A DNA stretch of 64,000 nt from Calditrichaceae bacterium (GTDB lineage: Bacteria; Calditrichota; Calditrichia; RBG-13-44-9; J075): positions 1-64,000 of the forward strand of contig JABWBP010000001.1 of NCBI GenBank assembly GCA_013360445.1, read 5' to 3'. Both the position numbers and the translations under genes were made by a program. The notes below the pieces were generated by a model, which made no database searches, was not told the origin of the DNA, and saw only the letters and a program-made list of their open reading frames with translations. Below, piece by piece: positions 4,223 to 52,106 of the stretch. Each line of letters starts with the position of its first letter. The stretch's first letter is position 1.

Positions 4223-4335
4223 AACGTAAGGCGTAAAGCGTAACTTTGGGGGGGTTGCGTATTTCGTATTGCGTATTCCGCTTCTTACGCATTACGTTTT
4301 ACGAGTTACGCAATACGCTTCCCCCTCTTTCATTG
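4205..4335. repeat. CGTAA/TTACG-type foldback repeat flanked by G-rich and C-rich clamps
   Basis: agaggggggagggaa tgcgtaaaacgtaaggcgtaaagcgtaac ... ttacgcattacgttttacgagttacgcaatacgc ttccccctcttt. The arms are tandem GCGTAA-like units and their complements. The last NfeD codons and its stop lie inside this element. Confidence 0.75.
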
Positions 4336-4373
4336 TCAAAAGCTTCCATACATTTCACAAGGAGATTCAACTT

Positions 4374-9060: not shown

Positions 9061-10578
9061 TCAATGGGAATGCGCCCCGCCGACCGGGTCGAACTCGCTC
9101 CAGCCCCGGCCATCAAAGCGCAGGGCGCCCCGGGCGTGCTCTAAATAAAGCCGGTGGAGCGGGGTACGGAGATCTTCCGGGATGGTTTCCGGGGGTGATT
9201 TTTCCGGGTGGAAACGCAGGTGCAGCACTTCGGGGTGCGGGGCCAGCGCGGTTTTTCGTTCCGCGGGCAGGTTGATCAATTCTTTTTCCATCAGCATCCA
9301 AAGGAGTTGTTGAAAACCTTCTTCTTCCTGGTGGATGCCTTTTTGCCCCAATTCTTGCAGGGAATGGGTAATTTGCGCGGGCGTGTAACCGCAGCGGGCG
9401 GGATCGGCGCCGAGCGCCTTGAGCATTCCCACGATGCGGCGGCATTTCTCGCACCTGCCGCAGGGATGCACCCGCTCGCCTTTTTTGTGAGCGGCGTGGC
9501 AAGAAACCTGCTGCGCCTGCAAGTGCGGGTAGCGCTCTACCAGGATTTTCTCGATCAGCAGCTCCGAGAGCGGGCGCAGCAGGGAAAACTGCCGGATGCC
9601 CCAGCCTTTTTGCCGGAAATAAGCGCTCAGCGCCTCGTCGAAGTAGCGGCTCTGGTCGTACAGCCCGTCGTAGTGCGCGATGCCGCGGAAATTCTCCCGC
9701 ACCGTGGTATCGTATTCGTCGCCGATGATCAAACGCCCGAGGCCCCGCTTGCGCATCAACGGCAGCGCCCCGAAGAGGAACACCGCCACGGTCCAGAGGC
9801 GGATGGGGTACATATCCGCCCGCAGCCGGGCAAAATCCGGGCGAATGAAGGGAAGATGGCGCTTCATCCGGGAAAATACCCGGTCGCTGTTCATCCACAC
9901 CCGCCCGGTGTTGGGGACGTTGGCCTTGAAGTAGCGGTAAGCGTTGAGGGCGGTGAACCAGTGCCGCCCGGATTCGTTCCCGAAGACCGGGTGAGCTTCG
10001 CAGCCCAACTCGTTCAGCAGTCCGAAGCTGAGCAGGCTGTCTTTTCCGCCGCTGGAGAGCACCAGGTAGCGGGATAGGGATTTTCGATTTTCGATTTTTG
10101 ATTTGCGATTTCCTATTTTCGGATTTCGGGTTGCAGATTCTTCATCGGGGAAAAGCAGCTTCGACTGCAAGTAGCTTTTGGGGCGGATTACCGGCAGATT
10201 TGCCGCTTCGCCGATCAAGAAAGGGTTGGGGTGCAGAAACTTCTTCACGTAGATTTCGCAGGCGGTGTTATCGGCCATTTCGATCAAAAACTGCCGGTCG
10301 GCGCCATCGTAGCTGCCGCGGAAAACGATCTCCTCGCAGAACAGGCCGTAGTTGAGCGCTACCTGGGCGGCAATCATATCCGCCAGGTTCTGCGCACCCG
10401 GGTCGGCGGGATCGAACACCGGCTCTTCGTAGCGGTAGATTAAGTCGATGGAATCGGTTTTGCCGTTTCTGATAACCGTGTACGGCGCCACCAGCCGTTT
10501 CGCCTCCAGCCCCACCGGCCCGATTTCCAGGCGGTCGATCACTTTTAGTTGGGAAAGAGGATGGTCAGTTCGATTCAT
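9061..10578 (-). CDS. PP-loop ATP pyrophosphatase superfamily (adenine-nucleotide alpha-hydrolase) enzyme with a ~170-aa N-terminal extension and a C-terminal Cys cluster
   Basis: Contains LVLSSGGKDS (the SGGxDS PP-loop) and the C-terminal HPCGRCEKCRR (CxxCxxC), as in TtcA, QueC or amidotransferase-like members. I cannot assign a specific family from sequence alone. Confidence 0.65.
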   Translation of the reverse strand: MNRTDHPLSQLKVIDRLEIGPVGLEAKRLVAPYTVIRNGKTDSIDLIYRYEEPVFDPADPGAQNLADMIAAQVALNYGLFCEEIVFRGSYDGADRQFLIEMADNTACEIYVKKFLHPNPFLIGEAANLPVIRPKSYLQSKLLFPDEESATRNPKIGNRKSKIENRKSLSRYLVLSSGGKDSLLSFGLLNELGCEAHPVFGNESGRHWFTALNAYRYFKANVPNTGRVWMNSDRVFSRMKRHLPFIRPDFARLRADMYPIRLWTVAVFLFGALPLMRKRGLGRLIIGDEYDTTVRENFRGIAHYDGLYDQSRYFDEALSAYFRQKGWGIRQFSLLRPLSELLIEKILVERYPHLQAQQVSCHAAHKKGERVHPCGRCEKCRRIVGMLKALGADPARCGYTPAQITHSLQELGQKGIHQEEEGFQQLLWMLMEKELINLPAERKTALAPHPEVLHLRFHPEKSPPETIPEDLRTPLHRLYLEHARGALRFDGRGWSEFDPVGGAHSH

Positions 10579-10672
10579 GCGGTTGATATACCACGTTTGA
10601 TGAATACGTTGGGTTTAGCGTAAAATGATGATCTTTGACAAATGAATCGGGCTACCCTTGTTCTAAGCACCC

Positions 10673-10692
10673 TGTCAAACTGAAGTTTGACA
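10673..10692. promoter_or_regulatory. 20-bp palindrome TGTCAAAC-tgaa-GTTTGACA, copy 1, upstream of the PP-loop gene
   Basis: Sequence is exact at 10673-10692. It sits about 80 bp upstream of the PP-loop gene start, in the gap after the DUF1611 stop. Confidence 0.6.
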
Positions 10693-10747
10693 CTCCTGGT
10701 TTCTTCTGCTACTCGAAACTGGTAACCCAAAACTCGTAATTCGCAAC

Positions 10748-11824
10748 TTACTTTGCCAGATACGGCTTCAGCACTTCCACCAACTCCCCCGCCCCGAATT
10801 TGAGCACGTCAAATGCCGGCAGGCCCACGGCTTTCTGGATCGCGTCGCAAACTAAGGGAATTTGCTCGTTGGGCAAGTCTTCGTGGTTGATGGTGATCGC
10901 TGCCACGGGTTTGCCGGAGAGCAATTCGACCACCTGGATTTGCTTCGCCAGGGGATGGATGGGATAGCCGGGGAACCCGTCGTAATCCCTGCGCGCCGGG
11001 GCGTGCTGCAGAATGACCAGGTCCGGGCGTCCCCCGGCGAGAATCTCGAATCCCCCGGGATAGGCGGGGTTCATCAAGCTGCCCTGCCCTTCGATGACGA
11101 TCACCTCCGGCTGCGCCTCTTTCCAGGCGCTCCAGACCACGTGTTCGATCTCCCCGGAAACGAAATCGTTGACCAGCGAATCCATGATGACGCCGTAGCG
11201 CGCCCCCTGCATCCAGGCGGTCTGGCCGGTGCCCACCATCTCCGCTTTGTAGCCCGCCTCTTCCAGCGCCTGCACCAACAGCCAGGCGGTGGTGCGCTTG
11301 CCCACCGCGGAATCGGTTCCTAACAAGGCGATTTTCAAAGAAGCAACCTGCTCGATCTTGCCGCTGAAGAAATGCAAATTCTCCCGCGCCGGGGGTTTGC
11401 GCACGTCGCGGATGGCCGCGCCGGATTGCTGTGCAAGCTGCACAATTTCTTTATCTTCAGACAAAAAGTCGTGCAGCCCGGAATCCACGTTCAAGCCCAG
11501 GCGGAGCGCTTTTTTCACGTCATCCCGGGCGGCCAGGCTCAGGCGGCCCCCGTCCGGCGCCAAACCGATTACAAAATTGTTGGCGGGAGCGCCCCGCTCC
11601 TGCCCCAATTGAACGGCCTCCTCCAGGGTTGCGCATACCGGAATGTCTTTTTCCCGGCCGTCTAACACCTTCCCGGCGTCGCGGCCTTTGTAGCGGGAAT
11701 CGATCACCGCGATGACGTTATAGCGCCGGGTGAAGCGCACCAGCCCGTGGGCGGTTTTTCCGTTGGGAGTATTGAACGCGCCTTCACAGTACACAATCGC
11801 GTTGCCGTCAATTGCATTACTCAT
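10748..11824 (-). CDS. DUF1611-family protein (DgcN-like; frequent genomic partner of dipeptide epimerases)
   Basis: Conserved DUF1611 blocks IALLGTDSAVGKRTTA and VIVIEGQGSLMNPAYPGGFEIL. Start is placed at MSNAIDG (ATG 11822-11824) with aggaga upstream. The track start at 11881 is a TTG codon inside the palindrome. Confidence 0.7.
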   Translation of the reverse strand: MSNAIDGNAIVYCEGAFNTPNGKTAHGLVRFTRRYNVIAVIDSRYKGRDAGKVLDGREKDIPVCATLEEAVQLGQERGAPANNFVIGLAPDGGRLSLAARDDVKKALRLGLNVDSGLHDFLSEDKEIVQLAQQSGAAIRDVRKPPARENLHFFSGKIEQVASLKIALLGTDSAVGKRTTAWLLVQALEEAGYKAEMVGTGQTAWMQGARYGVIMDSLVNDFVSGEIEHVVWSAWKEAQPEVIVIEGQGSLMNPAYPGGFEILAGGRPDLVILQHAPARRDYDGFPGYPIHPLAKQIQVVELLSGKPVAAITINHEDLPNEQIPLVCDAIQKAVGLPAFDVLKFGAGELVEVLKPYLAK

Positions 11825-13625: not shown

Positions 13626-13905
13626 CTCAACCCCTTCCGTAGCCGGCGCTCGGGCGCTCCCCCCGGGAGAAGTTCGTGCTCCCCGGGGACTTACGGTGAG
13701 TATAACACCCCCAATCTCACCGGTGCAAGGAAAGATTTTCCTTTGTTGGGAAAGGGACAAGCCACTTCTTCGGAGCACTCCTGTTGTGCAATTTGACATG
13801 CGCCTTCACCCGGAGCCGGAAAGTATTTGGATTTGCAGAACTTGCAAAAATTCCTTATTATCGACTGTCGCCAAATAAAAAGCAGTGAACTACGGAGGAG
13901 TTTTC

Positions 13906-16900
13906 ATGGCCGGGGCAAAAAAATTCGGCGCCTTCAGCGGAGTGTTCACCCCTTCCATTCTGACCATTCTCGGCGTGATCATGTACCTGCGCCTGCCCTG
14001 GATTACCGGCCAGGCGGGGTTGTGGAGCACTATTGCGATTGTGCTGGTCGCCCACCTGATTTCGGTCACCACGGGTTTGAGCGTTTCCTCCATTGCCACG
14101 GACAAGAAAGTGAAAGCCGGGGGAAATTATTATATCATTTCCCGCAGCCTGGGCCTGCCCATCGGGGGAATGCTGGGATTGGCGTTGTTCGTGGGCCTCT
14201 CTTTCAGCGTGAGCCTTTATTTGATCGGCTTCTCGGAGAGCCTGCTGGCGGCGCTGGGGATGGAAATCACCCCCAACACCATCCGCATTTCCGGCACCAT
14301 TGCGCTGTTAGCGCTCACCACCATCACCTTTATCAGCACCGCCCTGGCCCTCAAGACCCAGTTTTTCGTGCTGGCCATGATCGTGCTCTCGCTGATCTCG
14401 GTATTACTGGGAAGCCACGATTTAGTCCCCGCGCAGCCGCATTTCAATTCGTTGCCGGGCGCGCCCTCCTGGATGGTGCTGTTCGGAATTTTTTTCCCCG
14501 CGGTTACCGGGTTCGAGGCCGGGGTGTCCATGTCCGGGGACCTGAAGGACCCCAAAAGATCCATTCCCGCGGGCACCATCAGCGCAATAACGGTGGGTCT
14601 GTTGGTGTACCTGGGCCTGCCGTTTTTCTTCGCTTATACCGTGGATGCCAACGCCCTGGCCAACGATACCAACGTGCTGCTAAAGATCGCCTATGTGCCC
14701 ATCCTGGTAACCATCGGCATCCTGGCGGCCACCTTCTCTTCCGCCATGGGCAGCATTTTAGGCGCGCCCCGCATCCTCCAGGCCACCTCGGTGGATCGCA
14801 TCACCCCGAAATTTTTCGCCAAAGGTCACGGCAGGGAAAACGAGCCGCGCAACGCCCTGCTGCTCACCTTCCTGATCGCCGAGGGCGGCATCCTGCTGGG
14901 GGAATTGAATCTCATCGCCCGCATCGTTTCGATGTTCTTCATTACCACCTACGGATTTCTGAATATGAGCTGCGCCCTGGAAAGCTGGGCTAGCGCGGAT
15001 TTCCGCCCGGAGTTCAAAATTCCCCGGGTAGTGAGCGTTATCGGCTCCCTGGCCTGTTTTATCGTAATGATCCAACTGGATTTCCTGGCCATGATCGGCG
15101 CAACCGTGGTGATGGGAGCGATTTTTGTGTCCCTGAAGCGCAAAGAGCTGACCCTGGAGTCCGGCGACACCTGGGAAGGGGTGTGGTCCTCCGTGGTGCG
15201 TTCCGGGTTGTACCGGCTTACCCACGAAATTCCCCACCCGCGCAACTGGCGCCCCAATATCATTCTGTTCAGCGGGGGGGTTTCCGCCCGGCCTTACCTG
15301 GTGCAGTTGGGAAAATGGCTCATCTACAAACGCGGGGTGCTGTCCGATTTTGAGCTGCTGGAATCCCCTCCGAAGGAGTCTTCGACGGCGCGCAAAGGGC
15401 TGCCTCCCAAATCCCACCAGGTGGTTGTCGATAAATCGCACGGCCCCGGTATTTTCACCCGCAGGCTGGCGGTAGAGGATATTTACCAGGGGATGGAAAA
15501 TGTCTGCCAGTTTTACGGTTTTTCGGGGATGGAACCGAATACGGTGATGATGGGCTGGGCCAGGAACGCCCAAAGCCCGGAAAAATTTTCCCGTCTCATC
15601 TCCCACCTTCACCAGTTGGATTATAACGTGCTGCTGTTAGATTACGACCGGGAGCGGGGTTATGGCGATCACAAACAGGTGGATATCTGGTGGCGGGGAT
15701 GGGGCAACAACCTCTCCCTGGCCCTGGCGCTGGTGCGTTTTCTGCTCTCCACGGATGAATGGGAAAAAACTGCGGTGCGCATCCTGATCGTGAACAACGC
15801 GGATGCCCTGACCGGCGCAATTCGCAAAAATATGCAGCGGGTATTGGAGGAATACCGCATAGAAGCGGAAGTGAAAGTGATCCAGAACGGCATCGAGCAG
15901 CGGCCCTTCGAGGAGATTATCAAAGTGGAATCGAAGGAAGCGGATCTGGTAATTTTGGGCCTGCCGGAATTCACGCCCGACAAAGCGCTGCCGTTCGTGC
16001 AGCGGATCGATGCTATCGTCGGTGAATTAGGCTCGATTCTGTTGATCTGGGCTTCTTCGTATTTCAAAGAAATTTACGTCGGCATCGAAAGCGCCGCGCC
16101 GGCCCCGGCGAGGACGCCGGAAACAGCCGCCGGGGAGTTCTCCCTGCCGGAATTGGCGCTGCCGGAGGACGAACGGATCGCCCCGTTGCTGGCGGAGCTG
16201 GATTCCCGGATGGCGGATATCCTCTCCCGCTACCGGGATGAATTTTTAAAGCGCGTGGAAAAATCCGAAACCGGGCTGATCGATGATCTTGGACGGCTAT
16301 CGGAGCAAATTTTCGGCAACCTGGACAAATATTTCGATGAAGAAGACCCCCAGCGCAGCCGGAAGTTGATCAATCGCAGCCACAGCGACTTTTTGTTCCA
16401 GAGCCAGCAGATATTAACGGAATTTCAACAAAAACGGCTTTCCGGGCAAAAAGAGGCGCTGGAAGAAGGCGCCGCCTGGCTGCTGCAGGAAATCGAGGCG
16501 CTGATCGCTGCCGGGCCGGAGCAGCTCACCGTGTTCTATGAATCTGCCCGGGTGCAGCCGGATCCGCAGGATCGCCTTTCCCTTAAATTTCTGAAGTTCC
16601 GCAAACGGATGCGCGCCCGGCTTACCGGCAAACCGGTTTCCCGGGCGGTGCGCCTGCAATCGCTGCTGAAATACTACCTGCAATTCAAGCTCCCGCAACA
16701 CTGGTATGCGGAGTTGGAAAAAGCGGCGGTTTGCGATTACCAGGGTATTGCCGAGGTTCAAAAACTGATCCACTCCCTGCGGGAAGGGCTGCTGCGCATC
16801 GAATACCGCCAGGCGCCGGAGAATTTGGCCGGGGAAGATATTTCCGCGGAACGGCAGAAAGCCGAAAAGCAGCTTGCCCTGCTCCGGAATACCGTTCGCG

Positions 16901-19089
16901 AGACGCAGGCGGACTTTTACCGCAGCCTGCGGGAAAACGCCCGGGGCGGCATCCAGGCGCTCAGCCAGGATTTGCAGGATTTAGAGATTCGCCGCAAGCT
17001 GAAAAAGGAGTACCGGGTTCCCAAATCTGCCGCAGCGTTGCGGCAGCAGATCGCTGAAGCGCCGGAAGCCTGGCTGCGCCACCGGGAGACGTACCTGAAT
17101 ATTGCCCTGTTAGACGTATGGTTGATGTCTTTGCAGAACCGGGTACGGGTGATTGTGCAGCGGATACGGCAGGATATCAATCTCAACCTCGAGGCCAACC
17201 TTCTGCATCCCCTGAAAGAGCTTTGCCGCGGCCTGGAAGCGGTTCGGGAAGAGGGAAAGGAGAGCGAAGATCGCCCCGCCGCCCTCGCCAGGCTGGCCCC
17301 CGGCGGCCAATTCAATTTTGATGAAGATGAGATCGCGCAAACCTTCCTGAAGGAAATCCGCGAAGCGACCGATGACCTCCCGGAAACCATCGAAACGTTC
17401 AACGAAGAAAGTTTTAATCAGAGCGCCGCACAGCCCTTCGAGGAAGCGGCCAGGTTTACGATCTCCCTGCGGCGGCTGGTGGAATATTTGATCGAAGAAG
17501 AATTCATCGATCCCTTGCGCGACTACCTGGAAAAGCTGCCCCGGCAATTCCGTCGCGCCGAAGAGGTTACCCGCGACGCGCTCCGCCTGGTTACCTTCCA
17601 GGCCGTGAGCCTGGAGGAGGCCGGCAACGCGGAGGAGAAAACCGCCGCCCGGGAGAATATCGACGCGATCCTGGAAAGCAGCCAAAAGCGGGTGGAGGAG
17701 GAGCGCCGGAACATCGATGCGCTGCAAGAGCAATTCAACCAGACCATCGAGCGGCTGCTCGATAAAACCTTCGAACAGATGAACACCTACACGGTGACCC
17801 GGCTGGCGGAGAATTTGAAACATTACATCCGCACCCATGAAGGCCAGAAAGTATTATCGAAATTCGAGGCGGCCCGGGAATCCGCCGCCGCTTTTCTAAA
17901 GGATAAGCTGGTGCGCCTGTGGTACCGGCGCAGCGAGAGCCTGTTAGCGGCGCGAAAGCTGCAAGTATCCGAGGAATACCAGAAAAATATTATTTATCAA
18001 CTGCTCAATTTGCGGGAAAGCGTTTCCCCCCGCCCGGAAGTGCTCAATGCCCTGCCCTTTTATTACCGGCAGGTTTTTTCCAGGGAACCGAACATTCATC
18101 CCAATTTCTGGGTGGCGCGGGAAAAAGAGCTGAAATTAGGGGAAACCGCGCTGGAACGCTTCCGCGCCGGGTTCCCGGGCGCGCTGCTGGTTACCGGGGA
18201 AGAAAATTCCGGGAAGACCTCTTTGTGCTATTCCCTGGCTCACAAGCAGTTTGCCCGGAACAACATTTTTTCGGTACATCCGCCGGCCGGCGGCACTATA
18301 GATCCGGAGGTATTCCGCGAGGCGGTAATGAGCGCGCTGCGCGCCAAAGACCTGTACCTGCGCGGCCAACTTCCCCAGGTATTCAATGCCCTGCCGCCGA
18401 ACAGCGTTTTGATTCTCGATGACCTGGAATTGTGGTGGGAACGCAGCGAAAAAGGCTTTGCCGTTATCGATCTTATCGTGGAATTGATCAACGATTTCGG
18501 GGGCAAATGCTTCTTTATAGCCAACGGTAATTTGCACAGTTTTCAATTGCTCAATCGCATCCGCAAGATCGAAAATCATTTTTTAGGCTTCATCGAATGC
18601 CAGCCCTTCGACGCCGAAGCGCTGAAGGACGCGGTCATGCTGCGCCACCGTTCTACCGGTTTAAAAATCGAGCTGAACGGGCAGGCGGAAGATGAGCTTT
18701 CCGAATTACGGCTGGCGCGGTTGTTCAACGCCTATTTCGATTACTCCGCGGGAAACGTGGGCGCGGCGCTGCAAGGCTGGATCAGCCATATCGAAAATTT
18801 CAACCAGGGCCGGCTCGCGCTTCGCCTGCCGGAACCGCCCGATACCGCTTCCCTGGAAAATTTGGAAAGCGCCTGGGTGGCGCTGCTGGCGCAGGTGCTG
18901 CTCCACAAGCGCTTAACTCCTGCCCGCCTGGAGCGAATCATGGATGATCCCGCGCAGGAGTGGCAGGCTCCCCTCGCCGCTCTCAAACGCGCCGGGCTGG
19001 TAATCGAAGGGACTAATGGGACGCTGGAAATCGATCCGTATCTCTATCCGCACCTCTACCGCAAATTTCGCCAGATGGAGATTCTATAA
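13906..19089 (+). CDS. Giant fusion protein: SLC12/cation-chloride-cotransporter-like (APC superfamily) permease + CCC C-terminal domain + ~900 aa coiled-coil + C-terminal P-loop NTPase with a possible winged helix
   Basis: The N-terminus (FGAFSGVFTPSILTILGVIMYLRLPWITGQAG, about 12 TM helices, then HPRNWRPNIILFSG) matches the CCC family. Residues 460-740 look like the CCC C-terminal domain. Residues 740-1440 are Glu/Arg/Leu/Gln-rich coiled-coil. Residues 1440-1720 carry Walker A GEENSGKTS, Walker B VLILDDLE and a sensor-like FFIANGN. It is a single uninterrupted 5.2-kb ORF. The GTG at 13885 is the track start, but ATG at 13906 has ggagg 7 nt upstream and is preferred. Confidence 0.78.
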   Translation: MAGAKKFGAFSGVFTPSILTILGVIMYLRLPWITGQAGLWSTIAIVLVAHLISVTTGLSVSSIATDKKVKAGGNYYIISRSLGLPIGGMLGLALFVGLSFSVSLYLIGFSESLLAALGMEITPNTIRISGTIALLALTTITFISTALALKTQFFVLAMIVLSLISVLLGSHDLVPAQPHFNSLPGAPSWMVLFGIFFPAVTGFEAGVSMSGDLKDPKRSIPAGTISAITVGLLVYLGLPFFFAYTVDANALANDTNVLLKIAYVPILVTIGILAATFSSAMGSILGAPRILQATSVDRITPKFFAKGHGRENEPRNALLLTFLIAEGGILLGELNLIARIVSMFFITTYGFLNMSCALESWASADFRPEFKIPRVVSVIGSLACFIVMIQLDFLAMIGATVVMGAIFVSLKRKELTLESGDTWEGVWSSVVRSGLYRLTHEIPHPRNWRPNIILFSGGVSARPYLVQLGKWLIYKRGVLSDFELLESPPKESSTARKGLPPKSHQVVVDKSHGPGIFTRRLAVEDIYQGMENVCQFYGFSGMEPNTVMMGWARNAQSPEKFSRLISHLHQLDYNVLLLDYDRERGYGDHKQVDIWWRGWGNNLSLALALVRFLLSTDEWEKTAVRILIVNNADALTGAIRKNMQRVLEEYRIEAEVKVIQNGIEQRPFEEIIKVESKEADLVILGLPEFTPDKALPFVQRIDAIVGELGSILLIWASSYFKEIYVGIESAAPAPARTPETAAGEFSLPELALPEDERIAPLLAELDSRMADILSRYRDEFLKRVEKSETGLIDDLGRLSEQIFGNLDKYFDEEDPQRSRKLINRSHSDFLFQSQQILTEFQQKRLSGQKEALEEGAAWLLQEIEALIAAGPEQLTVFYESARVQPDPQDRLSLKFLKFRKRMRARLTGKPVSRAVRLQSLLKYYLQFKLPQHWYAELEKAAVCDYQGIAEVQKLIHSLREGLLRIEYRQAPENLAGEDISAERQKAEKQLALLRNTVRETQADFYRSLRENARGGIQALSQDLQDLEIRRKLKKEYRVPKSAAALRQQIAEAPEAWLRHRETYLNIALLDVWLMSLQNRVRVIVQRIRQDINLNLEANLLHPLKELCRGLEAVREEGKESEDRPAALARLAPGGQFNFDEDEIAQTFLKEIREATDDLPETIETFNEESFNQSAAQPFEEAARFTISLRRLVEYLIEEEFIDPLRDYLEKLPRQFRRAEEVTRDALRLVTFQAVSLEEAGNAEEKTAARENIDAILESSQKRVEEERRNIDALQEQFNQTIERLLDKTFEQMNTYTVTRLAENLKHYIRTHEGQKVLSKFEAARESAAAFLKDKLVRLWYRRSESLLAARKLQVSEEYQKNIIYQLLNLRESVSPRPEVLNALPFYYRQVFSREPNIHPNFWVAREKELKLGETALERFRAGFPGALLVTGEENSGKTSLCYSLAHKQFARNNIFSVHPPAGGTIDPEVFREAVMSALRAKDLYLRGQLPQVFNALPPNSVLILDDLELWWERSEKGFAVIDLIVELINDFGGKCFFIANGNLHSFQLLNRIRKIENHFLGFIECQPFDAEALKDAVMLRHRSTGLKIELNGQAEDELSELRLARLFNAYFDYSAGNVGAALQGWISHIENFNQGRLALRLPEPPDTASLENLESAWVALLAQVLLHKRLTPARLERIMDDPAQEWQAPLAALKRAGLVIEGTNGTLEIDPYLYPHLYRKFRQMEIL

Positions 19090-19832
19090 TGAATGTGTTC
19101 GAGTTTCAAATATCCCAAACCGCGATTTTGAAGATTCTGCTCTTCGGAGCCGCTTTATACTTCGTGCTGCGAGTCGTGCAGAAAGCGATCCATCTTCCGC
19201 GGGTCAAAAAACTGCTGGGGTTTCCCCTGTACCGGGTTTTTCCATTCATCGAAATGGCGATCTGGGGATTTTTCCTGCTCTGGGCAGCGCAGCAGTTTTT
19301 CCAGCACCGCCCTTTCTATACCGCGGTGTGGATGGGGGCGCTGGCGTTGCTGCTCATCTGGGCCTCCTGGTTTGCCATTCGCGACGTGATTGCCGGAATC
19401 ATTCTCAAGGCGGAAGATGCTTATGAGATCAACCAGCGGATTAAATTGCCCTCCGTAGAAGGTAAAATCCGCCGCCTGGGCCACCGCTCCTTAGAGATCG
19501 AGACCGCCGAGGGGCAAATCGTCAAAATCCCTTATGGCCGGATTGCCGGAGAGGAGCGCATCCTTTCCGATCCCCGGGAAACCGGGCGCAGCTACGCTTT
19601 TCAGGTAAGCGCGCCCGCGTCTATGGCGCCGGAACAGGCCGCGGAACGGTTGCGCCGGGCGGCGCTCAATTCCCCCTGGTCTTCTGTGACCAAAGAGCCC
19701 CGGGTAAGATTCCTGGGGGAGCAGGAGGGGCGTTACCGCTTTGAAGTGGTCGCCTACCCCTTAGGGGAGGCCTATTCCCGGAAAGTGGAAGAGTACGTCA
19801 AGAAGCGAATGTTGAGCGGGAAGTCAGATTAG
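19089..19832 (+). CDS. Small MscS-family mechanosensitive channel-like protein (3 TM + beta domain)
   Basis: DVIAGIILKAEDAYEINQRIKLPSVEGKIRRLGHRSLEIETAEGQIVKIPYGRI matches the MscS pore-lining TM3 and beta-domain pattern. Its ATG overlaps the upstream stop (ATAATG), so translation is coupled. Confidence 0.7.
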   Translation: MNVFEFQISQTAILKILLFGAALYFVLRVVQKAIHLPRVKKLLGFPLYRVFPFIEMAIWGFFLLWAAQQFFQHRPFYTAVWMGALALLLIWASWFAIRDVIAGIILKAEDAYEINQRIKLPSVEGKIRRLGHRSLEIETAEGQIVKIPYGRIAGEERILSDPRETGRSYAFQVSAPASMAPEQAAERLRRAALNSPWSSVTKEPRVRFLGEQEGRYRFEVVAYPLGEAYSRKVEEYVKKRMLSGKSD

Positions 19833-20012
19833 CACGCTATTTGCAAAAAATTCCCCTGCCAGGGAAGGCTCACCCGGAAAGTTTTTTTCTAAGCGCTTTT
19901 TTATGTTGCGCTTATGGTTATTATTTCGTAACCCGGCGTAGGGGATAACCGCACCTTAGCGGGCAAAAAATTCTCACGTTCAACCATGATCTAACCCAAA
20001 AGCGAGAGGAAG

Positions 20013-22751: not shown

Positions 22752-25154
22752 TTATTCCTTCCGCAAAGCGTCCACCGGGTTGGCCCGCGCGGCTTTCAAG
22801 GTTTGCGAGCCGACCGTTATGGCCCCCAACAAGAACAGCAGCGCCACCCCGGGCAGAAACGCCCAGACATCCAGCGCGATATGGTAGGCGAAGGTTTGCA
22901 ATAGCTGGCTTCCGGCCAGGTAGCTGACCGGAAGGGCAATCACCACGGCGATGAGCAGCAGCAGAAAATACCCTTTGGAGAGCAGCGCCGCCAGGTTCCC
23001 GGGGCCGGCCCCCACCACTTTGCGGATGCTGATCTCTTTGCTGCGCGTTTCCGCCGTGAATATCGCCATGCCCAGCAACCCCAGGCAGGCAATCAGGATG
23101 CCGATGGCTCCAAAATAACCGACGATCCAGAGGATGTCGCGCAGGTTGGAAAAGGTCTCCCGCACGGTATCGTCGTAGAAACGGTATTCCGGCGGCGCGG
23201 GGCTGCCCAGGGTTTTCCAGATGTTTTCCAGCGCCGCAACGGCGGCCTGCGGATCGCCGCTGATTTTCAGGTTTAGCACCCGCAATTGCGCGGGATCGTA
23301 ACGCAGCAGCAGCGGTTCTAAGCTGTAGCTGAGCGGTTTGAAGAGGAAATCCTTTACCACCCCGCGAATGGCCACTTCGCTGCTGTCATCTAAGATAAGA
23401 ACCCGGTTGAGCGCCTCGGCCGGCGCGCCGAGCCGGAAACGCTCCAGGAATTTCTCATTCACAATAGCGAACAATTCCCGGCGTTGGGCAGGGTTTTCGG
23501 GAAAATTCTCCCCGGCGATCAATTCCAGCCCGAAATTGGGGATGAAGCGGTGGTCGATGAAGTAATCGCGCACCGGAACCGGCTCATCGGCGCGGGAGGC
23601 GCGAACGTCCGCGTTGCTGTCGCGCCAGGTTCCCATCAGGTGGGAGGCCGCGCTGATCTCCTGCACCTGGGAAACCCGGGAAATTTCCGCGGCCAGTTTG
23701 TCGTAGGGAATTCCCCCCATTTCCAGGTTGAGAATGTCGCTGCGGCCGGCGCCGAAATTTTCCCGGGTGGCAAAACTCATCTGCCGCCAGGCAATGGTCA
23801 GCAGGACGATAAACACCAGGGAGACGGCAAGCTGCGTTACCAACAAGGTTTTGCGCAATCCCACCCGGCGAAACAGCGGAAGGTTCTGAAGTTTTTGCAA
23901 CATTGACGCAGCCTGGAATTTCGAAAGAACCGCCGCCGGCAGCAGCCCTGCAACCACTCCTGTCGCGATCGCAAACAACAAAAACCACCCCGCAACCACC
24001 CAATCCATCTTTAGCGTCACATCCATGAAGGCGAGGAACTGCAAGCGCTTAAAAAACGGGATGGTCAATTCTAAGATTCCGTACGCCAGAACCAGCGCCA
24101 GCCCCGCGGTAAGCACCGCCTCGCCCATGAACTGCCCGAAGACCTGCCCCCGGGTAGCGCCCATCACCTTGCGAACCCCGACTTCCTTGGTGCGGGTAAA
24201 CGCGCGGGCAATGGTCAGGTTGGTATAGTTGAAACAGGCCGAGGCCATCACAATGGCGCAGAGAACCGTGAGAAACCACAGCAGCATGGCCGGCGCGCCC
24301 CTGCCGACGCTGTTGGAGAGCAGGGGACCGGGGGTAATTTCTTTCAACGCCTGCAAGCGGAACCGGTAACCGGCGTCGCGGGCCTCCAACTCCCGCCCCT
24401 GGTAAGCGGTTTTGGCAATGTTTGCCAGCGCCGCCTCCGCGGCTTCTTTGCCCGTCCCCGGGCGCAGGCGCACAAAATTATAGGTCATATAGTAGTTGTT
24501 CCAGTTTTCCGTCACGTTCCAATCCGGTTCCATCCTCTCCAAAGCGGGCAGGGTGGATATGGAACACAAGGCATCGAACTCCAGGTGGGTTTTCCCCGGG
24601 AACGGCTCTAACACCCCGGTGACTTTCAGGCTCCCGGTCCAGTTGTTTTCTAAAACCTGGCCGACGGGATTTTCATTTTTGAAAAAGCGTTGCGCGGTCT
24701 CCTGCGTGAGCACCACGCTCTGCGGCTCGGCCAGTGCGGTGGCGGGATCGCCCTGCGCCAGGCGGAAGCCGAACAGTTTGAAAAATTCGCTCCCGGCAAA
24801 AAAGCCTTCCATATTCAGCTCCTTGCGGGAGGTTCTGAATGCGCCGTTGAAAGAGCGCACCAGGGGCGACCAGGCTTCTATACCGGAGAAATCCTGCGAC
24901 AGCGCCATTCCCACGGGATAGGGCGAGGAAGCGTAACTCTCCTGCCCCCCGGCTTTTCGTTGGGCGTCGGTGAGGATGCGGTACACCCGCTCGCCCTGGG
25001 GGTGGAAAAGATCGAAATTATAGGCGTCGCGGATCAGCATGATCACCAATAGACACACCGACATGCTGATCGCCAGCCCGGAGGCGTTAATGAAAGAAAA
25101 CGCTTTGTATTTGAATAAACTTCGCAGGGCGATTTTCAGGTAATTTTTGACCAT
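22752..25154 (-). CDS. FtsX/MacB-type ABC transporter permease, 800 aa, two FtsX (DUF214) modules and an N-terminal MacB periplasmic domain (paralog 1 of 3)
   Basis: Starts MVKNYLKIALRSL and ends NPVDALRKE, the canonical FtsX-like termini. There are 4+4 TM segments. aggaga RBS. Confidence 0.88.
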   Translation of the reverse strand: MVKNYLKIALRSLFKYKAFSFINASGLAISMSVCLLVIMLIRDAYNFDLFHPQGERVYRILTDAQRKAGGQESYASSPYPVGMALSQDFSGIEAWSPLVRSFNGAFRTSRKELNMEGFFAGSEFFKLFGFRLAQGDPATALAEPQSVVLTQETAQRFFKNENPVGQVLENNWTGSLKVTGVLEPFPGKTHLEFDALCSISTLPALERMEPDWNVTENWNNYYMTYNFVRLRPGTGKEAAEAALANIAKTAYQGRELEARDAGYRFRLQALKEITPGPLLSNSVGRGAPAMLLWFLTVLCAIVMASACFNYTNLTIARAFTRTKEVGVRKVMGATRGQVFGQFMGEAVLTAGLALVLAYGILELTIPFFKRLQFLAFMDVTLKMDWVVAGWFLLFAIATGVVAGLLPAAVLSKFQAASMLQKLQNLPLFRRVGLRKTLLVTQLAVSLVFIVLLTIAWRQMSFATRENFGAGRSDILNLEMGGIPYDKLAAEISRVSQVQEISAASHLMGTWRDSNADVRASRADEPVPVRDYFIDHRFIPNFGLELIAGENFPENPAQRRELFAIVNEKFLERFRLGAPAEALNRVLILDDSSEVAIRGVVKDFLFKPLSYSLEPLLLRYDPAQLRVLNLKISGDPQAAVAALENIWKTLGSPAPPEYRFYDDTVRETFSNLRDILWIVGYFGAIGILIACLGLLGMAIFTAETRSKEISIRKVVGAGPGNLAALLSKGYFLLLLIAVVIALPVSYLAGSQLLQTFAYHIALDVWAFLPGVALLFLLGAITVGSQTLKAARANPVDALRKE

Positions 25155-25159
25155 TAGGC

Positions 25160-25365
25160 TTCTCCTGAGTTTTTGTCATTGGCTGCGCGGTCATTTGCCT
25201 GCGGCGTCATTGGCGCTTCGCGCGTCATTGCGCTTCGCGGTCATTGGCTGCACCCGTCATTTAGGTTGCGATCAATGACAACGAATGACAGCGAAGCAAA
25301 TGACAACCAGTGACAGCGCAGCGAATTGAGCGCAGCAAATGACGCCGTAGGCAAATGACACTATT
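25160..25365. repeat. GTCATT/AATGAC-type foldback repeat between permease paralogs 1 and 2
   Basis: Left arm is ggtcatttgcctgcggcgtcattggcgcttcgcgcgtcattgcgcttcgcggtcattggctgcacccgtcattt. Complement is aatgacaacgaatgacagcgaagcaaatgacaaccagtgacagcgcagcg...aaatgacgccgtaggcaaatgac. Confidence 0.85.
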
Positions 25366-27748
25366 CATACCGCAAACTTTCCACCGGATTCGCCAGCGCC
25401 GCCCGCAGGGCTTTGTAGCCCACGGTAAGCGCCGCAATCAGCGCGGTAATCCCTAACGCCAGGGCAAATACGCCCGCGCCGACCTGAATACGGTAGGCAA
25501 AATCTTGCAGCCAGCCGTTCATAACGTAGTACGCCGCCGGCGCGGCCACGGCAAAGGCAATCAGAATCAAGAGCGCGAATTCCTTTCCGAACAGCATCAG
25601 AATGTTGCCCACGGAAGCGCCCAACACTTTGCGCACCCCCACCTCCTTGGTGCGCCGCGCCGCCATAAAGGAAACCAGCCCCAACAACCCTAAGCACCCG
25701 ATGAAAATGGTGGTGCCGGAGAACACCCGGAACAACTGCGCGGTTTTTTGTTCTTCCTGGTAGAACCGCGCCACCCGCTCATCCAAAAACTGGTAGCTGT
25801 ACAGGAAATCCGGAAAAGCGGCGTTCCAACAGGTTTCGATATGGCGCAGCGCTTCTTTCGCGTTGTGCAAATCGATCTTGACGCCCGCCTCGTAATAGGA
25901 CTGGCGGCGGGCGGCCAGCAGGCAGGGCCGGATTTCTTCGTGCAAGGAGGTGGCGTTGAAATCCCGCACCACTCCTACCACCGGCAGGTAGGGCCGGCCG
26001 CCTAATTTAAAGGTTTTCCCCACGATTTCATCCGGCGTTAAGCCCAATTTCCGCGCGAAGGTCTCGTTGACCACCCATTCGGAGATGGTGTCGCTTTCCG
26101 TGTAATTCCGCCCCGTCACCAGCTTCAAGCCATAGACGGGGAGATAGGAAGCGTCGGCAAACTTCAAATCCGAGACGAAATCTTCCTCCGCACCGTTGAG
26201 GGTGTGCTGCAAGTTGCTGTCCCAGCGGATTCCGGAAGCGGCGCTGGAAAAGCTGAAAGAAACGTTATGAATCCGGCTGTCGCGCAGCAATTCGTTGCGC
26301 AGGGCGCTCAAAACGGCGGCGTCGTTGCGGGGCAGGGGGGTAATCACTACCGCTTCTTGATCGAATCCCAGGTCTTTGTTCCGGAAATAATCCAATTGCC
26401 AGGATACGATAATGGTAGCGATGATGAGCATCTGGCAGATAATAAACTGAAATATTACCAGCGCCCGCCGCAGGTTGAAGGCCCCGCTCGCCGGGGCGGC
26501 GGGTTTGTTCTTCAGCGCCAGCGCCGGGGTAAAACGCGAGAGGATGAGCGCCGGGTACAAACCCGCTAACAGGGTAACCGCCGCGGCCAGCGTTGCGGTG
26601 AATCCCAACAAGCGGGCGTCCTGCAGAGGATGAAACGGGATGTTCAACCCCAGGTAAGTCTTCAAAGAAGGCAGCAGCAATTCCGTTAGCGCCAGGGAGA
26701 ACAGCGCCGCGAAGAGCACGATCAGGAAGGTCTCTCCCAAAAACTGCCCGACCAACTGCCCGCGGAACGCTCCCAATACTTTACGCACCCCCACTTCCCG
26801 GGCGCGCTGCAGCGCCTGGGCGGTGGCCATGTTGATAAAGTTGATGCAGGCGGCTAACAGCAGTAAAAAACCGATCAGCCCCAGCGCCCACAGGGTGGTT
26901 TTGCTAATGGTGCGGTCGCCGTAGTTGCCGTAGCGGGGATTGAAATGCAGGTCGCTTAACGTTTGCAGCCGGTAGCGCCGCCGAGCCACGTCATCCCGGT
27001 AATACTTTTCCGTGAAAGCCGGAAACTGGCTTTCCAGGGCCTGCGCAGATTCCCCCGGCGGCAGCAACAGGTAAGTGTGCACGTTGGACATCAAATGCCC
27101 CCAGGAGTCCAGGTCGTAGCCGGATTGCGGCGCGGTTTTGAAGGAAATCATCGCGCTAAAAGGAAAGTCGCTTTGGGCCGGGGGATTTTTGGCGACGCCG
27201 GTGATTTTCAGATCGATCTGGCTATCCAGGCGGATGGTTTTACCGAGGGGATCCTCGCCGGGGAAAAATTTGGCGGCGAGGTCTTCGGTCAACGCCACGG
27301 TATTGGGTTCGGCCAGGCTGTTGGGATCGCCGATCAGCCAGGGGAAATCGAAAATCTCGAAAAACGCCGGCTCCACGAACACTACCCCGCGATTTTCCTG
27401 GAAGCGGCGCACCTGCCCCTCTCTTTCCAGCGAAAAAAGACCCTCCTGGTTATAAAGCGACACGGCGGCTTTTTCGATCTGCGGAAAATCGTTGCGCAGC
27501 GCCGCGGCAAAGGGAATCGGAGAGCCGGAGGTATGGGTGCTTTTATCGTTGATGGTCTCGTCCGTAACCACGCGGTAAATGCGCTCGAAATGGCGGTGGA
27601 AGCGATCGAAGCCCGATTCGTGGCGGATGATCAGGAAAATCAGCAGGCAGCAGGTCATTCCCAGCGCCAGCCCTAACACGTTAATGACCGCGTAACTGCG
27701 GTTATATCGTAACCTTCGCAGCGCGGTTATCAGATAGTTTTTGAACAT
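25361..27748 (-). CDS. FtsX/MacB-type ABC transporter permease (paralog 2 of 3)
   Basis: Start placed at MFKNYLITALRRL (ATG 27746-27748, ggagg RBS). Ends NPVESLRYE. The track ORF start at 27808 runs into the repeat. Confidence 0.88.
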   Translation of the reverse strand: MFKNYLITALRRLRYNRSYAVINVLGLALGMTCCLLIFLIIRHESGFDRFHRHFERIYRVVTDETINDKSTHTSGSPIPFAAALRNDFPQIEKAAVSLYNQEGLFSLEREGQVRRFQENRGVVFVEPAFFEIFDFPWLIGDPNSLAEPNTVALTEDLAAKFFPGEDPLGKTIRLDSQIDLKITGVAKNPPAQSDFPFSAMISFKTAPQSGYDLDSWGHLMSNVHTYLLLPPGESAQALESQFPAFTEKYYRDDVARRRYRLQTLSDLHFNPRYGNYGDRTISKTTLWALGLIGFLLLLAACINFINMATAQALQRAREVGVRKVLGAFRGQLVGQFLGETFLIVLFAALFSLALTELLLPSLKTYLGLNIPFHPLQDARLLGFTATLAAAVTLLAGLYPALILSRFTPALALKNKPAAPASGAFNLRRALVIFQFIICQMLIIATIIVSWQLDYFRNKDLGFDQEAVVITPLPRNDAAVLSALRNELLRDSRIHNVSFSFSSAASGIRWDSNLQHTLNGAEEDFVSDLKFADASYLPVYGLKLVTGRNYTESDTISEWVVNETFARKLGLTPDEIVGKTFKLGGRPYLPVVGVVRDFNATSLHEEIRPCLLAARRQSYYEAGVKIDLHNAKEALRHIETCWNAAFPDFLYSYQFLDERVARFYQEEQKTAQLFRVFSGTTIFIGCLGLLGLVSFMAARRTKEVGVRKVLGASVGNILMLFGKEFALLILIAFAVAAPAAYYVMNGWLQDFAYRIQVGAGVFALALGITALIAALTVGYKALRAALANPVESLRYE

Positions 27749-27774
27749 GGAATCCTCCGGGGAAATTTGGTCAT

Positions 27775-27960
27775 TTGCCTGCGGCGTCATTAGGGCTTCG
27801 CCCGTCATTTCGGGAAAAATGACCCGCGGCGCGTGCCCTTACGACATGGGAAAGCACAAATGACTCCCCACGTTGAGGGAAAATGACACCCAATGACGCG
27901 CGAAGCGCAAATGACGGCGAAGCCAAATGACAACTAATGACACGCGAAGCGCGAATGACT
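27775..27960. repeat. GTCATT/AATGAC-type foldback repeat between permease paralogs 2 and 3
   Basis: Left arm is ggtcatttgcctgcggcgtcattagggcttcgcccgtcatttcggg. Complement is aaatgacacccaatgacgcgcgaagcgcaaatgacggcgaagccaaatgacaactaatgacacgcgaagcgcgaatgac. Confidence 0.85.
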
Positions 27961-30397: not shown

Positions 30398-30462
30398 GGA
30401 GTCTCCCGTTTTCGGATTTCGACGCAAGTTTTAGCTATCAGCTATCAGCTGAAAGCTGACCG

Positions 30463-48307: not shown

Positions 48308-48710
48308 ACCCGGTCCGGTTGAAGTGTATCGAAGAGCCTCCCCTTTTTCCCGAAAGCCTGCTCCCCGGCGGGATGCAGCCTCTTCGGAGGATTCCCCCAG
48401 GCATAGGCCGAATTTACTCGTTCAACCCCGGGGAGGCAAGGATTTTTCCGTTTGCAGGTGCCACTACACCCCGCTTTCCTGTATCCTTGAAACGTGGATT
48501 ACGTCCGAAAAAATAAAGCCCTCCCGGCAACCCGGGATGGCTTGAGAAATATTCTGGCAGATATTTCAATGAGAGTTCTCCAGAAGGGCGGGCATCCCTA
48601 ATGATTGGGATAGTGGAACTTTGTGCCTTAGAGCCTTCGTGGCAACTTTGAAAACAGCCTCTCAGAATGTGGCCTTGTGGAGTATAGTTACCTCACAAGG
48701 TGAAGGCGAT

Positions 48711-49754: not shown

Positions 49755-49860
49755 ATATTAATCCTCAGCCCAAAACGCAATAGATAAATGTCCTTATCGC
49801 CGCTTTATGATATTTTTGGTAAGTTTCTATCTTTTAGTTTTCCATCGCGTTCTATATAAG

Positions 49861-52088: not shown

Positions 52089-52106
52089 CTCTTCAACCCT
52101 CCGGTT

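Follow-up and report, generated by a model that had tools for sequence, protein, structure and literature searches.

The window, i.e. the whole analysed stretch of 64,000 nucleotides from a Calditrichaceae bacterium, carries a conserved two-gene operon, in which a large gene for a cation-chloride cotransporter (CCC) that continues into a stalk and an ATPase is followed by the gene of an MscS-like protein. The large gene is one open frame on the plus strand, from 13906 (ATG) to 19089 (TAA), and encodes 1727 amino acids; that this frame is uninterrupted had been claimed in a preliminary description of the DNA. The features of the locus are the following, with positions in the window and residue numbers of the encoded protein.

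13894–13899, plus strand: Shine-Dalgarno-like GGAGGA, 6 nt upstream of the ATG at 13906, read from the sequence
13906–15225, plus strand: CCC/SLC12 membrane domain with LeuT/APC fold, residues 1–440 (Pfam AA_permease, TIGR00930, KCC4/NKCC1 structure alignments)
15226–16125, plus strand: CCC cytoplasmic C-terminal domain, residues 441–740, including the RNWRPN junction at 15241–15258 (Pfam SLC12, PF03522)
16126–16176, plus strand: linker with conserved LPxLxLP motif, residues 741–757 (consensus of alignment A2, 57 sequences)
16177–17865, plus strand: long all-helical stalk, residues 758–1320, with predicted helices of 50–77 residues
17866–18102, plus strand: conserved pre-ATPase segment, residues 1321–1399, with the motifs LLYxRSxGxLLAR and LPFYYRQLF (orthologue conservation)
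18103–18600, plus strand: AAA+ ATPase core, residues 1400–1565, starting with FWVGRxxE and containing Walker A, Walker B and a sensor-1-like FFIANGN
18196–18219, plus strand: Walker A GEENSGKT, residues 1431–1438
18406–18444, plus strand: Walker B VLILDDLELWWER, residues 1501–1513
18601–18789, plus strand: AAA+ lid, residues 1566–1628, with PFxAExLK..LRHxSTG and FDYSxGNVGxAL..W (secondary structure of the AF2 model)
18790–19086, plus strand: C-terminal winged helix, residues 1629–1727 (AF2 and DSSP; Foldseek alignments)
19087–19091, plus strand: TAATG junction, in which the stop of the large gene (TAA, 19087–19089) and the ATG of the channel gene overlap by 1 nt
19089–19832, plus strand: divergent MscS-family protein of 247 aa (Pfam MS_channel_2nd; named mechanosensitive ion channel family protein by NCBI)
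19851–19866, no strand assigned: terminator-like hairpin between runs of A and T, directly after the operon (pattern scan, consensus match only)

The overlap of the two genes that had been described before is indeed present, as TAA and ATG share one nucleotide (ctaTAATGaat). In the orthologues, stop and start overlap in 32 of 56 loci, in 28 of them by 4 nt (ATGA) and in four by 1 nt, and it is thus likely that the large gene and the MscS-like gene are translationally coupled. As to other signals, the promoter and terminator scan of the window yielded no excess over the shuffled expectation, and a scan of the window for tRNA and Rfam families found none.

Some 300 GTDB species carry the two-gene unit, and the homologues form 877 clusters at 50% identity (E <= 1e-30). 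An uninterrupted ORF of 1678–1812 aa that is colinear with residues 1–1727 is present in 56 of the 80 loci of related GTDB species, so that no stop codon or frameshift regularly separates the permease from the ATPase, and intact orthologues occur in Calditrichota, Ignavibacteria, Bacteroidota, Myxococcota (including the cultured Enhygromyxa salina) and Latescibacterota. In the other loci, the gene is either cut at a contig end or frameshifted, at a position that varies between loci and for the most part in 'MFD' MAGs. Among 144 new cluster representatives, 87 have 1600–1899 aa, and those below this range are truncated, with no preferred point of truncation. Also ATPase proteins of 227–1300 aa, which could have been taken for a separate stand-alone architecture, begin at arbitrary places when mapped on the full-length sequence and were rejected as fragments. 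A homologue search with residues 750–1727 gave only two matches, probably because the word index was swamped by the helical region, and an ATPase-only query and an alignment query worked better. Two NCBI Calditrichia MAGs encode the identical 1727-aa protein, annotated only as "amino acid permease". A description of a CCC-ATPase fusion or a study of any member was not found in the literature searched, in agreement with the earlier statement that no described transporter of the SLC12 superfamily is known to have such an NTPase.

The N-terminal part had been assigned to an SLC12/CCC-like permease, and this assignment holds. Pfam AA_permease matches residues 13–411 (E 4.7e-52), structures of KCC and NKCC from human and mouse match at E values of about 1e-81, and the best 32 PDB matches are SLC12 chains throughout (E 2.7e-81 to 1.7e-60). 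The NCBIfam K-Cl cotransporter model TIGR00930 matches with E 1.1e-117, but the score of 394.5 bits does not reach the trusted cut-off of 953.4, and the protein is therefore a CCC outside the eukaryotic KCC subfamily. With a conservation of 0.63–0.91 per 50-residue block, the membrane domain is the best-conserved part of the protein. For hNKCC1, the residues of the Na+, K+, Cl-1 and Cl-2 sites have been defined (PMC7889885), and their counterparts L19–I25, Y105, P198/T201/G202, A275/S278/S279 and Y349 are kept in the fused protein. In the K+ site, Y105 (TM3) and P198 and T201 (TM6) align with Y383, P496 and T499 of hNKCC1; in the Na+ site, A275, S278 and S279 (TM8) align with A610, S613 and S614; and in the Cl- sites, G23–I25 (GVI, TM1) and Y349 (TM10) align with G301–M303 and Y686. 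According to alignment A2, which comprises 57 orthologue sequences of which 53 cover TM1, these residues are invariant across the family (57/57, or 53/53 for TM1). The domain is thus predicted to catalyse Na+/K+/Cl- symport.

The proposed NWRP junction and CCC-type C-terminal domain are likewise present. The junction lies at R446–N451 and is conserved in the 57 orthologues, PF03522 (SLC12) matches residues 589–672 with 27.4 bits (E 2.2e-6) in the whole protein and with 40.7 bits (E 2.1e-10) when the domain is searched alone, in both cases above the cut-off of 27, and the KCC4 alignment extends to residue 678. The protein thus resembles NKCC1 and KCC1-4 (SLC12, TC 2.A.30) in its LeuT-fold membrane domain, its junction and its eukaryote-type C-terminal domain, and it differs from them in being bacterial and sharing its operon with the gene of an MscS-like protein, in having neither the N-terminal regulatory tail (TM1 begins at about residue 10) nor the large extracellular loop, and in carrying about 990 additional C-terminal residues that comprise stalk and AAA+ ATPase. 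Stand-alone prokaryotic CCCs such as MaCCC of Methanosarcina acetivorans also consist of a membrane domain and a cytoplasmic C-terminal domain, but they end after the latter and are only about 30–32% identical to the fused CCC, and their C-terminal domain models (CCC_C_1st_pro, CCC_C_2nd_pro) have no match in that of the fused protein at E <= 1.

The region behind the CCC part had been described as 700 aa of coiled-coil. A long helical region is indeed there, but it comprises only about 560 aa, with two small beta inserts and about 33% charged residues, and the model predicts helical hairpins or bundles rather than an established canonical coiled coil. No natural structural relative of this stalk was found. 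In the pre-ATPase segment that follows, Y1340, S1343, P1375, P1384, Y1386, Y1387 and F1391 are conserved to at least 95%; the low-pLDDT stretch of the model (residues 1304–1355) partly covers this segment, and at a pTM of 0.52 it is uncertain how stalk and ATPase are placed relative to each other.

The C-terminal P-loop NTPase that had been recognized by its Walker A, Walker B and FFIANGN motifs is supported by the conservation of all three in 57 orthologues. G1431 and G1436 are found in 57/57 and the Walker A lysine K1437 in 56/57, while D1506, E1508 and the WWER motif are invariant (57/57). R1580, H1581, G1585, F1607, F1611, G1616 and W1625 of the lid are invariant or almost so. The AF2 model of the last 378 aa (pLDDT 89.5) consists of AAA+ core, lid and winged helix, by which also the suspected winged helix is substantiated. 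The ATPase resembles archaeal ORC/Cdc6 most; the nearest structural matches of this model are ORC/Cdc6, TnsC and PAB2304, and the Foldseek alignments to ORC/Cdc6 and RuvB cover almost all of its residues. Pfam AAA_16 and AAA_22 match residues 1402–1530 below their gathering scores (27.3 vs 32.6 and 24.4–24.5 vs 27, respectively), and the ATPase thus represents a divergent subfamily that has no Pfam model as yet. It shares only 11–17% identity with ORC/Cdc6 and with the archaeal PAB2304 (2qen) and SSO1545 (2fna), from which it further differs by the unique Walker B extension DLELWWER, by its tethering to a transporter, and in that there is no sign of a DNA role. As far as can be judged from alignment and secondary structure, the sensor-2 arginine is absent (the position reads GNVG) and there is no invariant arginine finger (box VII): no arginine from sensor 1 to beta5 is invariant, and R1513 and R1580, which are, have other locations. 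It is therefore uncertain whether the domain hydrolyses ATP and forms rings.

The previous classification as AAA+/STAND-like can be kept only in its first half. STAND NTPases (Apaf-1/NB-ARC, MalT, Avs) have the same order of nucleotide-binding, helical and winged-helix domains and a similar hhhhDD-type Walker B followed by aromatics, and the winged-helix histidine H1667, which is invariant (57/57), is reminiscent of the MHD motif and might contact the nucleotide as the histidine of that motif does. However, the protein ends at residue 1727 and has no sensor repeat domain after the winged helix, and it is thus an ORC/Cdc6-like AAA+ ATPase with an AAA_16-type signature and not a demonstrable STAND protein.

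The small MscS-like channel gene that had been noticed downstream is directly adjacent in nearly all orthologous loci. Its product shares three TM helices, a beta domain and an alpha/beta domain with E. coli MscS, of which residues 29–191 can be aligned (E 0.0035). MS_channel_2nd matches residues 97–153 (E 1.5e-9; 38.2 bits vs a cut-off of 20.2), whereas MS_channel_3rd does not reach its cut-off (14.8 vs 21). A difference lies in TM3, which reads GALALLLIWASWFAIRD and has the bulky, aromatic and charged family consensus WFxxRDxxAGxIFK in place of the Gly/Ala pattern and G113 kink of MscS; in the weak alignment mentioned, A103, G104, G108 and G113 of MscS correspond to L, A, I and F. As the putative pore helix does not have the Gly/Ala packing pattern, channel activity of the MscS-like protein is not assured. 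Unlike E. coli MscS, it also has a CCC-ATPase gene as its obligate partner.

Beyond these two genes, the operon has no third universal component, as the window's own neighbours are conserved solely in L008, the closest relative. Directly next to the operon, Na_H_Exchanger is the most frequent gene: it accounts for 15 of 131 flanking ORFs and occurs in 17 loci, with two different gene arrangements, but this linkage is restricted to Bacteroidota. A canonical MscS is encoded in the flanks (within about 6 kb) of seven loci and is the immediate neighbour in three of these, a stand-alone CCC paralogue of 752 aa is inserted within the operon in L045, L072 and L085, and MscL and LEA_2 are encoded near the operon in L003. 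Two loci contain also permease-less paralogues, soluble proteins with a helical part and an AAA+ ATPase: one of 823 aa in L045, which adjoins the gene of a 239-aa MscS-like protein, and one of 1056 aa in L010, in which the Walker A lysine is changed to arginine and which adjoins the gene of a 394-aa MscS. This association suggests that ATPase module and channel are directly linked.

The invariance of the ion-site residues, the recurrence of genes for Na+/H+ exchangers, canonical MscS and stand-alone CCCs nearby, and the absence of a PADLOC, plasmid or phage signal favour the osmotic or ionic homeostasis that had been considered as a function. With a probability of roughly 55%, the operon encodes a dedicated module for ion and turgor homeostasis, in which an NKCC-like symporter is controlled in cis by a nucleotide switch and is accompanied by a partner channel. 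The CCC domain would import Na+, K+ and Cl- as salt uptake for an increase of volume or turgor, and the MscS-like protein would serve as release valve or partner conductance. The C-terminal ATPase would act as a nucleotide-dependent switch and not as a motor, its ATP/ADP state or oligomerisation would set the transporter activity via the stalk, and probably it would influence the MscS-like partner as well. Eukaryotic CCCs are regulated by kinases, and the ATPase switch would stand in for this; the ATP-dependent regulation that had been suggested earlier is an inference. In osmosensing transporters, ion or osmolyte transport is known to be controlled by cytoplasmic coiled-coil or nucleotide-binding modules, and the coiled coil of ProP, the CBS domains of OpuA and the RCK rings of Trk/Ktr are comparable by analogy only, as there is no relation in sequence or fold and the regulator here is an AAA+ ATPase in cis, connected via a stalk of about 560 aa. 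A tentative extension of the homeostasis module, for which the odds are clearly lower, is that ATPase, stalk and MscS-like protein form one physical machine, in which the nucleotide switch directly gates both the NKCC-type symporter and the channel. If so, this would be a previously unknown ATP-sensing route to bacterial turgor and ion content, and the first case of an SLC12 transporter and of an MscS channel under AAA+ control.

In animals, CCC/SLC12 transporters have a central part in the control of cell volume and chloride, and loop and thiazide diuretics act on them; we know of essentially no established physiological role for a prokaryotic CCC. What is new here is a widespread bacterial family, currently hidden by its annotation as 'amino acid permease', that combines an NKCC-like transporter having all ion-site residues with an AAA+ ATPase and an MscS-like channel gene. 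A nucleotide-based, non-kinase regulation of CCCs, the functional pairing of an uptake transporter with a release channel in one operon, and a new AAA+ subfamily that acts at the membrane and has the DLELWWER Walker B extension as its hallmark thereby become testable. With four intact ion sites and a eukaryote-type C-terminal domain, these bacterial NKCC homologues would be suited to mechanistic work, and with Enhygromyxa salina and Cytophagales as hosts that are in culture, experiments are feasible.

The near-universal MscS partner, whose start usually overlaps the upstream stop, and the permease-less paralogues, in which this module is likewise accompanied by an MscS gene, would fit also another division of tasks, in which ATPase and stalk mainly serve the gating, assembly or localisation of the MscS-like protein, the CCC being a later N-terminal addition that anchors the module or co-localises uptake and release and is not itself regulated by the ATPase. 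This is unlikely, however, as only two permease-less examples have been seen, one of them with the exchanged Walker A lysine, and as the CCC fusion is retained in those about 300 species across phylum-level distances, an argument for selection on the covalent link as such.

The winged helix could be a DNA-binding element, since its counterparts in the closest structural relatives, which are of ORC/Cdc6 type, bind DNA, and H1667, K1668 and R1695 are conserved. AAA_16-type ATPases are frequent in regulators, and the protein might thus be a transceptor, whose CCC part senses Cl- or K+ or transports them as a signal, with AAA+ ATPase and winged helix as output, e.g. by membrane-tethered DNA binding or partner recruitment. 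Such a role is quite improbable, as the putative recognition helix PAQEWQAPLAALKRAG has few basic residues, the ion sites show the conservation expected of active transporters, and the MscS-like gene is the sole conserved candidate target in the flanks examined.

Signalling or defence by a membrane-anchored NTPase had been the alternative in the preliminary description, and it is less favoured than the homeostasis module, as PADLOC, plasmids and phages gave no signal for it. An anti-phage or abortive infection system, in which a STAND-like NTPase would detect infection and make the ion gradients collapse by opening transporter and channel, is very unlikely here. The winged helix is followed by no sensor repeat domain. 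PADLOC has no family for either full protein and matches the ATPase alone only with E 0.015–0.047, homologues were found neither in 72,556 plasmids nor in 50,697 phage records, and the genes directly next to the operon have housekeeping or ion-transport functions, none of the top 25 families being a defence family. Moreover, strong purifying selection acts on the transporter core, whose ion sites are intact, and sequence identity roughly follows taxonomy.

That separate permease and ATPase genes were joined by an assembly chimera or a read-through artefact, a concern of the preliminary description, has a practically negligible probability: all four homologous contigs examined first (L001–L004) have frame changes, but these lie at different positions in each contig and were rejected as a refutation of the fusion, the break in L002 being a tandem duplication of about 43 bp and the seven frame switches in L003 being typical of long-read errors, multi-frameshift cases come mainly from 'MFD' contig_ assemblies, which we take to be long-read assemblies, and the ORF is uninterrupted in 56 independent assemblies, the Enhygromyxa salina genomes included, with the exact 1727-aa sequence occurring on three contigs from independent sources.

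The fused gene and its neighbour form a conserved two-gene unit, in which a cation-chloride cotransporter (CCC; SLC12, as in NKCC and KCC) fused to a helical stalk and an ORC/Cdc6-like AAA+ ATPase is accompanied by a divergent MscS-family protein. The coordinates and all motifs quoted in the preliminary description were found in the window sequence, where the unit is arranged as follows.

The two-gene unit in the window
13906-19089, plus strand: CCC-ATPase gene, one open frame of 1727 codons from ATG to TAA
19089-19832, plus strand: MscS-like gene, 247 aa
19851-19866: hairpin with flanking A and T runs, after the MscS-like gene

A GGAGGA lies 6 nt ahead of the ATG of the CCC-ATPase gene, and at the junction (ctaTAATGaat) the final base of its TAA is the first base of the MscS-like ATG.

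A stop or frameshift that splits the permease from the NTPase, named beforehand as evidence against a fusion, was at first seen in related genomes, as all of the first four related contigs (L001-L004) have frame changes, but this was overturned by 56 intact orthologues. The breaks fall at different positions contig by contig; in L002, a JGI metagenome contig, about 43 bp are duplicated in tandem (L002:495-580), which makes an apparent frameshift in the orthologue and is probably an assembly artefact, and the seven frame switches of L003 are read here as long-read indel error. When one genome per GTDB species was surveyed with the pattern DLE[LM]WWER, 295 loci were obtained, and in 56 of the best 80 of these an uninterrupted ORF of 1678-1812 aa is colinear with residues 1-1727 in a single tblastn segment, so that the single-ORF fusion first proposed has held. 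In most others of these 80, contig ends intervene or the contigs belong to 'MFD' MAGs and have multiple frameshifts, and three (L018, L023, L026) align in one frame with a gap of ~170-220 nt early in the permease. The hosts are Calditrichia, Ignavibacteria, Bacteroidota (Cytophagales, Bacteroidales), Latescibacterota and Myxococcota, the latter including three cultured Enhygromyxa salina strains, and the Calditrichia orthologue L008 is 92% identical to the large protein over its full length, which places the window in Calditrichaceae. Searched exhaustively with HMMER, 1.84 billion cluster representatives yielded 3609 matches with E <= 1e-3, of which 877 have E <= 1e-30. Of 144 proteins newly listed there, 87 have 1600-1899 aa, and the shorter ones were rejected as a separate architecture, as their N-termini lie at arbitrary positions of the full-length protein and they are thus fragments. 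The exact 1727-aa sequence is present at NCBI as MCK6621559.1 and NUQ39765.1, both labelled 'amino acid permease', and the channel protein as MCK6621558.1 and NUQ39766.1. A chimeric assembly is excluded by the intact orthologues together with these identical NCBI proteins.

The N-terminal part clearly belongs to SLC12. Pfam AA_permease matches residues 13-411 (E 4.7e-52), the NCBIfam K-Cl cotransporter model TIGR00930 matches the entire N-terminal part (E 1.1e-117, with a score below the subfamily trusted cut-off), and the top 32 matches in a PDB search are SLC12 chains only (KCC1-4, NKCC1, NCC; E 2.7e-81 to 1.7e-60), the structure alignment crossing the RNWRPN junction, entering the C-terminal domain and stopping at residue 678. 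The fused CCC C-terminal domain (15226-16125, residues 441-740) matches the eukaryote-type Pfam SLC12 model, with 40.7 bits for the isolated domain against a cut-off of 27, and Pfam gave no match in it at E <= 1 to the prokaryotic CCC_C_1st_pro and CCC_C_2nd_pro, unlike in the stand-alone bacterial CCC, which matches these models. Typical prokaryotic CCCs may be more distant from eukaryotic SLC12 than the fused family is.

In hNKCC1, the ion sites comprise L297, W300, A610, S613 and S614 for Na+, N298, I299, Y383, P496 and T499 for K+, G301, V302 and M303 for Cl-1, and G500, I501, L502 and Y686 for Cl-2 (PMC7889885). Their alignment counterparts are L19-I25, Y105, P198, T201, G202-E204, A275, S278, S279 and Y349, all invariant in the family with the exceptions of T201 (56/57) and E204, a position which alternates with Thr and is L502 in NKCC1 and Met in KCCs; in mKCC2 the site at the equivalent position has been assigned to the backbone (PMC7889885). 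KCC4 has S-T-C-G-A where NKCC1 has A-T-L-S-S and lacks both Na+-site serines. As the residues of the Na+, K+ and Cl- sites are kept and KCC4 lacks the Na+ serines, we take the bacterial protein to be NKCC-like, with Na+, K+ and Cl- as its probable substrates.

The following stalk (residues 758-1320) had no significant family match in a profile search, and ~33% of its residues are charged. An AlphaFold2 model of residues 740-1727 (mean pLDDT 82.9, pTM 0.52) gives helices that are 50-77 residues long, as well as two small beta inserts, and because of these long helices and the lack of a family match the region is called a generic long antiparallel helical stalk, as modelled. Ahead of the ATPase, residues 1304-1355 (17815-17970) have very low model confidence (pLDDT ~33) and hold the strongly conserved motif LLYxRSxGxLLAR, in which Y1340 and S1343 are conserved to at least 95%; this segment may serve in binding or as a hinge.

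The last 378 aa were modelled with pLDDT 89.5 and pTM 0.88 as an AAA+ alpha-beta-alpha core with a helical lid and a winged helix, for which the best Foldseek match was archaeal ORC2/Cdc6 (E 3e-10), ahead of RuvB, eukaryotic ORC/Cdc6, PAB2304 and TnsC. The signatures FWVGRxxE, GExxSGKT, hhhh-D-D-L-E, the lid helix P-F-x-A-E-x-L-K and GNVGxAL fit the ORC/Cdc6 and AAA_16 type, with Pfam AAA_16 and AAA_22 scores below the gathering thresholds. Unlike STAND proteins, the large protein has no sensor domain, because the chain ends at the winged helix. Among the 57 full-length sequences, G1431, G1436, D1506, L1507, E1508, W1510, W1511, E1512, R1513, R1580, G1585, F1607, F1611, G1616, W1625 and the winged-helix H1667 are each found in 57/57, and K1437 in 56/57. 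Neither a sensor-2 arginine nor an invariant arginine finger was seen in the family alignment, and because of this and of the ORC/Cdc6 fold class the ATPase is more likely to be a switch than a motor.

Conservation of the large protein (majority-residue share per 50-residue block, 57 full-length sequences)
Membrane domain: 0.63-0.91
CCC C-terminal domain: about 0.47
Stalk: 0.25-0.46
ATPase: 0.41-0.59

The MscS-like protein combines three hydrophobic helices with a beta domain (MS_channel_2nd, E 1.5e-9) and an alpha/beta domain that is weak, and aligns to residues 29-191 of E. coli MscS (E 0.0035); where the latter has its Gly/Ala-rich pore helix, the family has the TM3 motif WFxxRDxxAGxIFK. 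In virtually all loci of sufficient extent its gene is next downstream, with an overlap between its start and the upstream stop of 4 nt in 28/56 loci and of 1 nt in 4/56.

With a probability of roughly 0.55, the unit is a monovalent-ion and turgor homeostasis module, in which the NKCC-type domain would take up salt, the MscS-type protein would provide a conductance coordinated with this uptake, and the ATPase would be the nucleotide switch that coordinates both. Flanking-ORF clustering gave a single recurrent neighbour, an Na_H_Exchanger (CPA) of ~450 aa in 17 Bacteroidota loci, which in Bacteroidales is divergent and directly upstream of the unit (e.g. L045:2565-3926, minus strand) and in Cytophagales directly downstream and mostly co-directional. 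It is also the commonest Pfam family of the 131 immediate neighbours (n=15), followed by DnaG primase, a case of lineage synteny within Ignavibacteria, and then FAD oxidoreductases, MscS, AhpC and CorA. A canonical MscS lies within about 6 kb in the flanks of 7 loci and is the immediate neighbour in 3 of these. Three Bacteroidales MAGs have a further CCC inserted into the unit, and two loci have a permease-less paralogue.

Transport and ATPase genes in related loci
L046:9851-11221, plus strand: Na_H_Exchanger
L045:9028-11286: stand-alone prokaryotic-type CCC between the CCC-ATPase and MscS-like genes, 752 aa, CCC_C_1st_pro and CCC_C_2nd_pro
L072:~9151-11226: stand-alone prokaryotic-type CCC between the two genes
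L085:~9141-11222: stand-alone prokaryotic-type CCC between the two genes
L045:13871-17042, minus strand: permease-less paralogue (soluble helical, AAA+ and winged helix), 823 aa, no TM segment
L010:11565-16102, minus strand: permease-less paralogue of the same composition, 1056 aa, no TM segment

Both permease-less paralogues are followed by an adjacent MscS-family gene, which suggests that the primary partnership of the ATPase module is with the channel; that in L010 has Arg for Lys in Walker A (GERGSGRTT). That the ATPase chiefly serves the channel is accordingly the foremost alternative to the homeostasis module, if an unlikely one. Still less probable is a transceptor with the winged helix as its output, and a function in defence or abortive infection is improbable indeed: PADLOC gave nothing significant for the unit, no defence family is in the top 25 Pfam families of the 131 immediate neighbours, and plasmid and phage collections contained no homologues. 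An assembly artefact can practically be dismissed in view of the intact orthologues.

In a full-text literature search, with subscription journals thinly covered, no description of a CCC-ATPase fusion or a CCC-ATPase/MscS-like operon was found, and the public names of the large protein are 'amino acid permease', 'amino acid transporter/GTPase SAR1 family protein' and 'hypothetical protein'. Every domain belongs to a known superfamily; it is the combination and the DLELWWER ATPase subfamily that appear to be undescribed.

The flanking genes of the window itself are conserved in L008 only and include a PLP enzyme, DUF1611, creatininase, an OmpA-family protein and three MacB/FtsX permeases, the latter being tandem MacB_PCD/FtsX paralogues of about 800 aa each (22752-30427, minus strand). 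A low-GC island at 48000-52100 (GC 0.37-0.46 vs about 0.55 elsewhere) may have been horizontally acquired; its ORFs 48711-49754, 49861-50391 and 50664-52088, all on the minus strand, had no Pfam match, and it adjoins a T9SS-sorted protein (FlgD_ig / Por_Secre_tail) at 52107-53423. The window also encodes an SPFH/Band 7 domain protein of 550 aa (4269-5921, plus strand) and, in an 872-aa ORF (60341-62959, minus strand), an unusual fusion of an alpha/beta-hydrolase with a VTT/DedA membrane domain and a weak RimK-like ATP-grasp match.
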